A stretch of 64,000 bases of DNA from Candidatus Moraniibacteriota bacterium (GTDB lineage Bacteria; Patescibacteriota; Minisyncoccia; Moranbacterales; UBA1568): NCBI GenBank assembly GCA_963743885.1, contig CAVURJ010000001.1:76949-140948 (forward strand). The letters are read 5' to 3'. The first letter of the stretch is position 1. Each line of letters begins with the position of its first letter. The position numbers and the translations under genes were made by a program. This document shows, piece after piece, positions 41,396-43,233 of this stretch. The notes below the pieces were generated by a model that did not search any database, was not told where the DNA came from, and saw only the letters and a program-made list of their open reading frames with translations.

Positions 41396-41750
41396 CAAGT
41401 GAATGAAGTGAACGCCGTGGCCAGAGTAAGCCAACTGCTTGGCTTACGAGGGAGGCGAGAAAGCCGGAGCGATATCCACGCGAGTGGACCGCGAGGCGGG
41501 GTCGACAGCTCGCATAAGCGAGACTGGTGACCGAGTCCTCTCCTAGGCACAAAATGAACAAAGTGAATGGATTGTGCCCCGGAAGCAGGCCAACTCTTGC
41601 CTACCGGCAGGCAGGGCTTGGCCTGCGGAGGACGAGAAAGCCGCAGTGCTGCGTGAGTTTCCGCCGAAGGCGGAAGGCGAGCGCCACGAGGCGGGGTCGC
41701 GAGAAATTTCCGTCAGGAAATTTACTTGTGACCGAGTCTCTCGTTTCTAC
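41396..41750 (+). repeat. Two tandem roughly 165-190-bp related units, each ending in a copy of the tRNA-Leu(GAG) 3' end (…cgagtcctctcctaggcaca; …gtgaccgagtctctcg)
   Basis: Unit A 41396..41560 and unit B 41561..41750 share blocks (aagccaactgcttggctt / caggccaa...ttggcctg hairpins; gaggcgagaaagccggagcg / gaggacgagaaagccgcagtg; cgaggcggggtcg). Unit B contains ttgcctaccggcaggcagg. Confidence 0.7.
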
Positions 41751-41824: not shown

Positions 41825-41842
41825 CAGTACCTATAAAATATG

Positions 41843-42160
41843 CCGAGGTAGCTCAGTGGTAGAGCAGAGGACTGATTTTCGGTCACTCCTGTAGTAATAC
41901 AGGATGTATGCATCGGGTGAACTCGAGGAAACCTACGTTTCTAGCAATAGGAATATGGCAATCTCGATCCAAGCCTCAGTGGGATAAAGTTCTGAGGAAG
42001 GTGTAGAGACTAGCAGGTGAGCCCCAACAATAATCCTGCAACAGCGCCCGACTTCGCACTCCTTTCGAGGAACGAAGATGAAATAGTCCGATCCTTGGGG
42101 AAACCCAAGACAAATAAGAGGAAAATCCTTGTGTCGGCAGTTCAATCCTGCCCCTCGGCA
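41843..42160 (+). tRNA. tRNA-Phe (anticodon GAA) interrupted by a 246-nt group I intron in the anticodon loop
   Basis: 5' exon 41843..41874 (GCCGAGG acceptor, D-arm, GAGGA-CT) and 3' exon 42121..42160 (GAAAATCCTT...GGCAGTTCAATCCTGCC CCTCGGC A). The acceptor stem is perfectly complementary across 300 nt. The spliced loop reads CTGAAAA. Confidence 0.7.
41875..42120 (+). mobile_element. Group I intron in tRNA-Phe
   Basis: Internal guide GGTC pairs with exon GACU with a U.G at the splice site. P7-forming R/S-like elements are gtagagactagcagg and agatgaaatagtccgatcc. The intron ends in G (omega-G) at 42120. Confidence 0.6.
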
Positions 42161-42228
42161 CAGAAGACAGTTAGCAGTTAACAAATAGCAGACAACGGGA
42201 CTGTAGCTCAGTGGTAGAGCGCGCGGCT

Positions 42229-42848
42229 CAAGAAGTTCATTTCAAATTGTGTTGCGGGTTGTGTAATTCAGCATGACAATTGTTGCAAACAAGCAGACAC
42301 TTGTTCACTTCTTCGTCAATATGGGATTGCTTCCGATTTGAAAGGGATCTCATATCGAGTTGAAAGCTTTTTTCTTTCGGATCAAGGTGATGGAAAGTCA
42401 GTGCGGCAAGGTTTTTGTTATAGCCGCAAACTGAACATTTCCCACCGAATCGTTTCAAAAGCGACATCTTTCTCTCCAAGCCCCTGGCTTGTTGGGATTG
42501 ATACGATTGATGAAGCTGATTCTTACAAAAGGGCGAGCAAAAGACTGTTTGTCTGCCAGACAATTCCTTGCTACACACGACACAAGTTATGAGTTTTTTC
42601 ATAACTTTATGATAACACAAAATGAATGGATCTAGCAGGGCTGCTTAGGAAGTAATTCCTAAGTGATACTCTGTCAAACTCGGGGAAATCTAAACGGTGA
42701 GCAGTTTCATCCGCATGACAATCCCGAGCCAAGCCTCATCCATCAGGTGAGGAAGGTGTAGAGACTAGACGGCAGACACCCGTAATTCGGGTGAAGGGAT
42801 AGTCCAGCTCACAAATTTGAAAGAAGTTGCGAAAGCAATAGTGAGAAG
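42229..42848 (+). mobile_element. Group I intron in tRNA(CAT) carrying an antisense HNH endonuclease ORF
   Basis: The 3' part (ccaagcctcatccatcaggtgaggaaggtgtagagactagacgg ... gggatagtccagctcac) is homologous to the tRNA-Phe intron core. The intron ends with G at 42848. The ORF 42237..42620 lies on the opposite strand. Confidence 0.6.
42237..42620 (-). CDS. HNH homing endonuclease (intron-encoded, antisense to host tRNA)
   Basis: 127 aa; CSVCGYNKNLAALTFHHLDPKEKSF ... LLVCNNCHAELHN is a classic HNH/zinc-finger motif. Low GC. Confidence 0.7.
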   Translation of the reverse strand: MCYHKVMKKLITCVVCSKELSGRQTVFCSPFCKNQLHQSYQSQQARGLERKMSLLKRFGGKCSVCGYNKNLAALTFHHLDPKEKSFQLDMRSLSNRKQSHIDEEVNKCLLVCNNCHAELHNPQHNLK

Positions 42849-42947
42849 CATAACCGCTTGGTCGTTGGTCCGATTCCAACCAGTCCCACAAAAACCCCTC
42901 CCCCATTGACCTGGGCGGGTTTTTTTGCCAAAATGTCCTAGTGAGCT

Positions 42948-43022: not shown

Positions 43023-43067
43023 GTAAAGTAAAAGGAATGACCTCGCGTTATTCCTTTTTACTTTTTT
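43023..43067 (+). terminator. Intrinsic terminator after tRNA-Gly
   Basis: agtaaaaggaatgacctcgcgttattccttttact plus TTTTT. Confidence 0.6.
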
Positions 43068-43157
43068 AGTGGTAACGGGAGGAGAAGGGCGCGAGTCGGA
43101 AGCGAGCGAGCGCAGCTTCCTGTGTGTAGCGCCCAGGCTTTTTGTCAGAGCAAAAAG

Positions 43158-43177
43158 GACTCCCGTTACCCGCTCCA
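43158..43177 (+). repeat. 20-nt perfect direct repeat of the tRNA-Gly 3' end (gactcccgttacccgctcca), 155 bp downstream of the tRNA
   Basis: Identical to 43003..43022. The intervening 135 bp contains a terminator hairpin and ggtaacgggag...ctcccgttacc inverted repeats. Confidence 0.8.
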
Positions 43178-43233
43178 AGCAACAAAAACAACCTCTGGAG
43201 AGGTTGTTTTTGTTTTTCTGCTACACTATATAT

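Follow-up and report, generated by a model that had tools for sequence, protein, structure and literature searches.

A 64,000-nucleotide (nt) stretch of a Candidatus Moraniibacteriota genome (contig CAVURJ010000001.1, positions 76,949 to 140,948; hereafter the window, with positions counted from its first letter) contains, within a transfer RNA (tRNA) operon on the plus strand, a tRNA(CAU) gene that is split by a group I intron, and on the opposite strand of this intron there is an open reading frame (ORF) for a small protein of the HNH type. We consider it probable that this is a mobile group I intron in a tRNA-Ile2 gene, whose P1 loop carries an antisense HNH homing endonuclease gene (HEG) with a promoter of its own, whereby nuclease activity and homing are predicted properties. 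The features on which this reading builds are the following:

42197-42228, plus strand: 5' exon of the tRNA, most likely tRNA-Ile2(CAU), ending in U33 (ARAGORN on the ligated exons; break with intron-less alleles)
42229-42848, plus strand: group I intron of 620 nt, inserted at U33/C34 and ending in omega-G (RF00028; precisely absent in 58 metagenome alleles)
42230-42637, plus strand: P1 loop (L1) of about 408 nt, with the antisense ORF and its putative promoter inside (positions of the two P1 strands)
42237-42602, minus strand: HNH gene, 121 amino acids (aa), with a four-cysteine zinc ribbon and a predicted HNH domain (ORF list; homologs; PHROG; AlphaFold; substitution rates)
42609-42617, minus strand: putative extended -10 element TGtTATCAT, 6 nt upstream of the ATG (conservation in the family)
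42638-42644, plus strand: predicted internal guide sequence GGGCUGC, the 3' strand of P1, pairing with 42223-42229 (conservation of the guide)
42638-42848, plus strand: ribozyme core P2-P9 (Rfam alignment; RNAalifold covariation)
42849-42888, plus strand: 3' exon, most likely of tRNA-Ile2, beginning with the anticodon CAU; CCA not encoded (ARAGORN; intron-less allele breaks; Escherichia coli tRNA-Ile matches)

The tRNA(CAU) Gene Is Split by a Group I Intron

When the segments 42197-42228 and 42849-42888 were ligated, ARAGORN returned a 72-nt cloverleaf with the anticodon CAU; in its default mode the program called no tRNA at this gene, nor at the likewise split tRNA-Phe gene next to it. The sequence between the two exons lies between U33 and C34 and ends in G42848, a terminal omega-G that is invariant in 23 relatives. 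With the Rfam model RF00028, the plus strand of the window gave two matches, 42622-42829 with 63.1 bits and 41865-42110 (the tRNA-Phe intron) with 57.4 bits, at a gathering score of 50; relatives scored 55-87 bits. A preliminary description of this region had proposed that 42197-42888 is a tRNA(CAU) gene interrupted by a group I intron of 620 nt, and both the Rfam score and the cloverleaf fold of the ligated exons bear this out. It had made its case depend on the assignment of the 3' exon, and this assignment holds, as the ligated exons give a good tRNA.

The boundaries of both introns are independently fixed, because the alignment of syntenic intron-less relatives with the window breaks exactly at 42230/42849 and at 41875/42121. 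The break at 42230 leaves two nucleotides, CA, ambiguous in the alignment with the intron-less alleles. Since the 5' junction in relatives such as locus L002 reads GGCU/UAAG, the CA at the junction is not exonic and the splice site lies after U33. In the spliced tRNA(CAU) G1 is paired with C72, unlike in bacterial initiators, and the tRNA is therefore not an initiator. Among E. coli genes it is matched best (81-85%) by those that are annotated as tRNA-Ile and have the anticodon CAT, for which reason the split gene most likely encodes tRNA-Ile2 (lysidine type) and not tRNA-Met. The intron is predicted to self-splice with a guanosine cofactor, which would yield a standard tRNA-Ile2.

The P1 Loop and the Ribozyme Core

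The preliminary description had raised the question of how P1 forms around an ORF of this kind, and the positions of the P1 strands provide an answer. As worked out from the sequence, a P1 of up to 7 base pairs (bp) can be formed by 42223-42229 (GCGGCU plus C42229) and the guide sequence GGGCUGC at 42638-42644, about 410 nt downstream, and these positions place the antisense ORF together with its upstream region inside the P1 loop, which they fill. U42228 stands opposite G42639, which gives a U-G pair at the 5' splice site, and P2 begins immediately 3' of P1. Among 23 diverse aligned relatives, U33 and the guide bases GGGC are invariant, and GGGCUG is present in 21. Loci L018 and L016 are mismatched at -4/-5 of P1, so that the helix would comprise only 4-7 bp. 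Covariation within P1 was considered as evidence and set aside as uninformative, since neither the guide GGGC nor exon positions -1 to -3 vary. A P10 pairing was looked for, and nothing convincing was found.

In the remaining structure, RNAalifold analysis of the 23 relatives revealed compensatory changes in 36 of the 61 predicted pairs, located in P2, P3, P4-P6, P8, and P9, whereby the program cannot represent the P3/P7 pseudoknot and mispaired the guide sequence with the P7 strand. Judged by these compensatory changes, the ribozyme is under structural selection.

The HNH Gene on the Opposite Strand

The minus strand of the intron contains one long ORF, which was called mechanically from a TTG start at 42620-42237 with 127 aa. 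The start that is common to the homologs is the ATG at 42602-42600, from which a protein of 121 aa is encoded up to the TGA stop at 42239-42237. The TTG start was rejected in favour of this ATG, because M1 is invariant in the homologs and because the TTG lies upstream of the -10 box proposed below. Hence, the 127-aa antisense HNH ORF of the preliminary description is indeed intact, antisense, and of the HNH type, but has to be shortened to 121 aa; its end, which had been placed 9 nt from the 5' splice site, is as close to the site as suggested, the actual distance from the stop codon to the site being 8 nt inside the intron.

The 121-aa protein is matched by HNH families of PHROG at 3e-19. In the alignment of homologs the N-terminal four-cysteine zinc ribbon is invariant, and so are the residues of an HNH pattern (C56, C59, H71, H72, N89, C106, N108, C109, H110, and H114, corresponding to CxxC...HH...N...CxxCH...H). 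The AlphaFold model of the protein reached a pLDDT (predicted local distance difference test score) of 93, and its closest solved structures, though weakly matched, all belong to HNH nucleases. A search of solved structures by sequence with the HNH protein gave nothing significant. By its residues and predicted fold, the ORF product would be an HNH (beta-beta-alpha-Me) nuclease. In the comparison of the window with locus L001, the non-synonymous rate (dN) was 0.042 and the synonymous rate (dS) 1.2, corresponding to a dN/dS of 0.035, and pairwise values among the copies of the ORF ranged from 0.03 to 0.13. Judged by these ratios, the ORF is under strong purifying selection.

A Putative Promoter of the HNH Gene

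The element TGtTATCAT upstream of the ATG occupies 42617-42609 of the minus strand, with the TG at 42617-42616 and the hexamer at 42614-42609. In 54 unique copies of the locus, T at -12, A at -11, and T at -7 were each found in 47-49 copies, and the combination TAnnnT (-12 to -7) in 45; a TG at -15/-14 is present in 31. In 48 of these copies the complement of the guide sequence precedes the ATG at position -41 +/-2. Copies from Chloroflexota also have a TTGACA at a spacing of 16-17 nt. The conserved -10 box suggests that the HNH gene has its own sigma-70-type promoter, a case that is built on conservation across the family. As the box ends 6 nt before the ATG and leaves no room for a Shine-Dalgarno sequence, the HNH messenger RNA (mRNA) is probably leaderless, with a transcription start at or beside the A of the ATG. 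With a minus-strand promoter of its own, the HNH gene would be expressed independently of tRNA transcription and in convergence with it. The predicted HNH transcript would continue antisense through the 5' exon; downstream of the HNH ORF there is no convincing terminator close by.

The three bases GTT immediately 5' of the ATG (42600-42605 of the window together with the ATG) are kept in 44-49 of the 54 copies. On the tRNA strand GTT plus ATG reads CAUAAC, which equals the first six bases of the 3' exon, and the gene cassette therefore has GGCU on one side and CAUAAC on the other, which together make up the presumed target. The GTT may have remained as a scar of the insertion, may be constrained by the leaderless start, or may be there by chance.

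Distribution of the Antisense Arrangement

At least 246 homologs of the HNH protein with 55-90% identity were found, and a homolog is encoded in 304 species-representative genomes of the GTDB. The locus analysis was carried out with 80 loci fetched from these 304 species-level genomes. In about 75 of the 80 the ORF lies antisense inside an intron of 595-660 nt, and the tRNA reads GGCU/...G/CAUAAC across the two junctions. Genomes with this layout are found among Patescibacteria, Chloroflexota, Armatimonadota, and Latescibacteria. According to the record titles, 39 of the loci belong to Patescibacteria, 23 to Chloroflexota, two to Armatimonadota, one to Latescibacteria, and four to Gammaproteobacteria, the others being unlabelled or doubtful. 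A group I core is present on the strand opposite to the ORF, just upstream of the ORF start, in all Rfam-tested loci except L023, L025, and L071. The ORF of many relatives reaches the 5' exon, either with a stop codon that overlaps U33 or by extending 15-22 nt or more into the exon in antisense. Thus, the antisense layout is that of a widespread, conserved family and not a one-off.

The preliminary description had named disruption of the ORF in relatives as the sign of a decaying pseudogene. As checked by tblastn, the ORF is intact in about 78 of the 80 relatives, with a dN/dS around 0.1, and a pseudogene reading was rejected on the basis of this integrity and of the dN/dS range given above. 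One premature TAA each was found in L009 and L012. In L051 (719-1081) and L060 (902-1261) there are two to four in-frame TGA codons, several of them at conserved Gly positions, and no other in-frame stops; L060 is labelled as Gracilibacteria and L051 only as "Patescibacteria group". The ORFs of these two loci would be intact only under genetic code 25 (UGA = Gly), which may be read as a sign of long residence and of translation in those hosts.

Evidence on Mobility

Metagenome contigs provided the intron-less form of the gene. In 58 of them intron and ORF are both absent, and no HNH homolog was found in any of these contigs. In four of the 58 (L193, L197, L201, and L211) the allele is identical to the ligated exons of the window at 72 of 72 positions (sequence GGGACTGTAGCTCAGTGGTAGAGCGCGCGGCTCATAACCGCTTGGTCG...). 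The flanks of these contigs are syntenic with the window at 65-75% identity, and closely related lineages therefore differ by the whole unit of intron and gene. The GC content is about 42-44% across the intron and ORF and 55-60% in the flanking coding sequence, which is consistent with a foreign origin of the unit. The intron cores of one Doudnabacteria and one Latescibacteria genome are 80-84% identical to Anaerolineales cores and 67-76% to those of other Patescibacteria. This suggests a transfer of the intron between phyla, with the grouping made from pairwise core identities.

Relatives Outside of the Intron

Four Gammaproteobacteria (Granulosicoccaceae and Lysobacter) have a free-standing homolog with about 60% identity, which lies upstream of a tRNA-Ile2 gene at a distance of 53-235 nt and is divergently oriented. 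These tRNA-Ile2 genes carry an ORF-less intron of the Azoarcus type after the CAU (position 36/37), with the guide GGUG. The regions with free-standing HNH gene and intron-bearing tRNA-Ile2 are:

L065, 516-1304
L076, 917-1863
L079, 1129-1902
L083, 1074-1869

Between the HNH gene and tRNA-Ile2 of L076 there is a 19-nt partial duplicate of the tRNA 5' end (1400-1382).

In IMG/VR, relatives are encoded at 392 viral loci, from which 80 loci of 3.3 kilobases were fetched (L089-L168). At least one tRNA gene is present in 75 of them and at least three in 58. In 66 of the 80 a tRNA gene lies no more than 200 nt from the HNH match, and in 18 of these 66 it is a tRNA(CAU). Two viral loci, L091 and L108, show the intron arrangement, with a group I core antisense to the ORF, and in six more (L090, L092, L102, L104, L105, and L110) the HNH stop codon abuts or overlaps a tRNA(CAU) on the opposite strand. 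Relatives from cultured phages, with at most 44% identity, are annotated simply as HNH endonucleases. The HNH clade is thus generally associated with tRNA genes, outside as well as inside of introns. The phage tRNA arrays with HNH relatives also harbor a permuted transfer-messenger RNA (tmRNA; RF04321, 53.8 bits, L099 2074-2325) and a tmRNA fragment (RF00023, L092 2305-2386).

Comparison With Known Systems

The group I intron in tRNA-fMet of Synechocystis interrupts the anticodon loop. In strain PCC 6803 it encodes I-Ssp6803I, an endonuclease of the PD-(D/E)XK type whose ORF lies in sense orientation in P1 (PMC3073962). This system resembles that of the window in that a bacterial tRNA gene with a CAU anticodon has a group I intron with an endonuclease ORF in P1. 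In contrast to the sense-oriented PD-(D/E)XK gene of I-Ssp6803I, which overlaps P1/P2, the ORF of the window is antisense, of the HNH type, has a putative promoter of its own, and lies in an intron at U33/C34 of tRNA-Ile2. The Azoarcus intron in tRNA-Ile(CAU) is located between U36 and A37. It shares with the window the type of host gene and the small architecture of tRNA-type ribozymes, and is of the type that is present in the gammaproteobacterial loci L065, L076, L079, and L083 (after CAU, guide GGUG). Unlike the intron of the window, it is ORF-less and at a different site, and the core of the window is only about 48% identical to the Azoarcus type.

Antisense HEGs are known from introns in nuclear ribosomal DNA (rDNA) of myxomycetes, namely I-DirII (Dir.S956-2) and I-DsqI (Dsq.L2066), which are expressed from an internal promoter (PMC3073962; PMC9548176). 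As in the window, these genes lie on the strand opposite to the ribozyme and the host gene. They are eukaryotic and of the His-Cys box family, have RNA polymerase II promoters, spliceosomal introns, and polyadenylation, and are located in P9.2 or other peripheral loops in ribosomal RNA genes, whereas the gene of the window is bacterial and of the HNH type, lies in the P1 loop of a tRNA intron, and has a putative sigma-70-type -10 box and an mRNA that is probably leaderless.

HNH endonucleases from phage introns include I-HmuI (SPO1) and I-PfoP3I (Pf-WMP3), the characterised ones being nicking enzymes (PMC3428280; PMC3073962). They share with the window the HNH family and the bacterial-type group I intron. 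Unlike the window gene, both are sense-oriented, located in protein-coding genes (DNA polymerase), and larger proteins, and no close sequence relationship of the window protein to I-HmuI or I-PfoP3I was detectable. In the model of Bonocora and Shub from 2009, which concerns T3 gene 5.3 and I-TslI, a free-standing endonuclease and an ORF-less intron reportedly each target one and the same conserved site on their own and are united later. The family described here is similar in that homologous endonucleases are intron-borne and free-standing beside the same target gene, in this case tRNA-Ile2; it differs from that case, which involves phage DNA polymerase genes and sense-oriented genes.

Group I introns in tRNAs of the candidate phyla radiation (CPR) are mentioned merely in passing (PMC8172020). 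In the searchable literature, which omits most subscription journals, no description was found of a bacterial group I intron with an endonuclease gene in antisense, nor of a tRNA intron with an HNH gene. There, the sole endonuclease-bearing bacterial tRNA intron is the one with the sense-oriented I-Ssp6803I, and antisense HEGs are found only in eukaryotic rDNA. All components of the locus are of known kinds, and the antisense family is apparently undescribed.

Interpretation and Alternative Explanations

In the mechanism that we propose, the locus would be a composite mobile element, consisting of a self-splicing intron in the single tRNA-Ile2(CAU) gene of the plus-strand tRNA operon and of an HNH gene that would be transcribed from the minus strand by its own promoter within the P1 loop. 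The 121-aa zinc-ribbon and HNH protein would nick or cut intron-less tRNA-Ile2 genes near U33/C34, and repair off the intron-bearing copy would spread intron and gene jointly. Cleavage of the empty allele by the HNH protein is expected here by analogy, from the logic of such elements. The endonuclease lineage may have been captured into the intron from free-standing HNH genes, such as those found upstream of tRNA-Ile2 in Gammaproteobacteria or within the tRNA arrays of phages.

Several observations weigh against this reading. A promoter consensus scan of the window alone called no antisense promoter, which it missed because the -35 region of the window is weak. The Pfam match of the protein to PF01844 scores 16.3 bits (E 0.011) and so stays below the cutoff of 21.4, with some homologs having a precomputed match to this family, and the best matches of the structure model in the Protein Data Bank by Foldseek (Cap5 HNH, Gme HNH nickase, T4 endonuclease VII, and Cas9 HNH) are weak, with E values of 0.15-0.7. 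A limited search of viral contigs for an ORF-less derivative of the tRNA(CAU) intron gave no match. The promoter, the leaderless start, and the target site are all deduced from sequence. Furthermore, sequence identity roughly tracks the host lineage and the ORF is under strong selection, so that a long vertical residence, possibly with a second, host-level function, would fit better than a simple cycle of invasion, decay, and loss.

It might be that intron and HNH gene are independent selfish elements. The HNH gene would then in essence be an endonuclease of the free-standing kind that targets tRNA genes, promotes its own spread, and has the dispensable P1 loop as a harmless parking place, while the intron is carried along or does not move. 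This explanation, which we regard as unlikely, would account for the homologs that stand free beside phage tRNA genes and beside gammaproteobacterial tRNA-Ile2 genes with an intron at the other position, 36/37, as well as for the promoter and the opposite orientation that the HNH gene has kept. It does not fit with the fixed spacing of ORF, promoter, guide, and core in about 75 loci, or with the lack of any ORF-less copy among those seen and the 58 empty alleles, from which intron and ORF are absent together. Since cutting at the insertion site would in practice lead to the co-conversion of intron and gene, this explanation differs from the composite mobile element mainly in evolutionary history.

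It could also be that the protein or the antisense transcript has been domesticated and has given up its part in mobility, now serving as a splicing helper (maturase) or regulating the processing of pre-tRNA-Ile2 in antisense. The very strong purifying selection and near-universal integrity of the ORF across deep lineages, the recoded copies in code-25 hosts, and the full complementarity of the antisense mRNA to about 370 nt of the pre-tRNA intron, with an ORF that enters the 5' exon in many relatives, would agree with such a role. We nevertheless hold it to be quite improbable, because all catalytic and zinc-binding residues of the HNH domain are invariant, which an RNA-binding role would not need, because empty alleles with identical exons and the similarity across phyla indicate ongoing gain or loss, and because no HNH maturase is established for group I introns. 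That the ORF is a decaying or chance frame in an immobile relic intron, as the single premature TAA codons in L009 and L012 and the weak Pfam support might hint, is hardly credible in view of at least 246 homologs at 55-90% identity, a dN/dS of about 0.1 with saturated dS, invariant catalytic residues, and a confident structure model.

If the composite mobile element is taken a step further, the family would be the first recognised one of bacterial group I introns with an antisense, self-promoted, and leaderless HEG, inserted at one conserved site, U33/C34 of tRNA-Ile2, in at least four phyla and derived from HNH genes of phage arrays. This wider claim we advance only tentatively, and would not be surprised to see it revised. 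If it is true, the series from free-standing genes in phage arrays over free-standing genes beside intron-bearing tRNA-Ile2 to intron-embedded genes would document the assembly of a mobile intron, and convergent transcription with the tRNA operon may gate the expression of the endonuclease. A bacterial antisense layout with an identifiable promoter would offer a simple, testable system for the expression of a protein gene inside a highly transcribed structural-RNA gene without harm to the host. The intron-borne and free-standing homologs at tRNA-Ile2 provide comparative material for the separate evolution and later merger of endonuclease and intron. Such introns would also explain the apparently missing tRNA-Ile2 in annotations of Patescibacteria and Chloroflexota, and the family supplies very small (about 121 aa) predicted HNH enzymes that presumably recognise a defined tRNA-gene sequence. 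The findings are thus of relevance for mobile introns, tRNA biology, and CPR genomics.

The tRNA-Phe Intron and Other Inserts in the tRNA Operon

Ligation of 41842-41873 and 42121-42160 gave a tRNA-Phe(GAA) in ARAGORN, and the gene is thus organized as follows:

41842-42160, plus strand: tRNA-Phe(GAA) with an ORF-less group I intron of 247 nt (41874-42120) at the U33/34 site (Rfam; ARAGORN)

Like the tRNA(CAU) intron, that of tRNA-Phe ends in G and uses the U33 site. Its core is 52% identical to the tRNA(CAU) intron core of the window, 47-53% to those of other tRNA(CAU) introns, 48% to the Azoarcus-type intron, and 81% to the tRNA-Phe intron of L013. The tRNA-Phe intron is polymorphic too and is lacking from most close relatives, being absent in L001, the closest relative with 90% HNH identity, and in L008, L016, L172, L193, L197, L201, and L211. 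Going by core identity, the two introns are separate lineages that have only the catalytic core in common. A recent duplication between them was therefore rejected, given 52% identity between the two as opposed to 81% between orthologous tRNA-Phe introns. The preliminary description had deduced recent intron mobility within the operon from the presence of two related introns in adjacent tRNAs, and had quoted sequence strings common to both. These strings do exist, but they belong to the conserved P3/P7/P8 core of this intron class, and the proposal of recent mobility is contradicted by the core identities.

Two related, ORF-less inserts of about 150-200 nt are arranged in tandem between tRNA-Leu(GAG) and tRNA-Val(UAC), at 41397-41545 and 41546-41745. 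Both start directly after a tRNA-Leu 3' end, have the motifs CGAGAAAGCCGsAG and CGAGGCGGGGTCG in common, and terminate with a copy of this 3' end that is in part degenerate (GTGACCGAGTCCTCTCCTAGGCACA). The fold of the first insert is better than that of shuffled sequences (z = -3.0). The inserts are absent in L001, L197, and L201, but L172 and L193 have several similar copies. Possibly, these inserts are small elements with tRNA 3' ends as their target. A further insert at 43023-43185 follows tRNA-Gly(GCC) and contains a terminal direct copy of the tRNA-Gly 3' end (GGACTCCCGTTACCCGCTCCA) as well as an inverted copy of it (GGTAACGGGAG) around 43072; it is flanked by terminator-like hairpins at 43030-43058 and 43181-43214.

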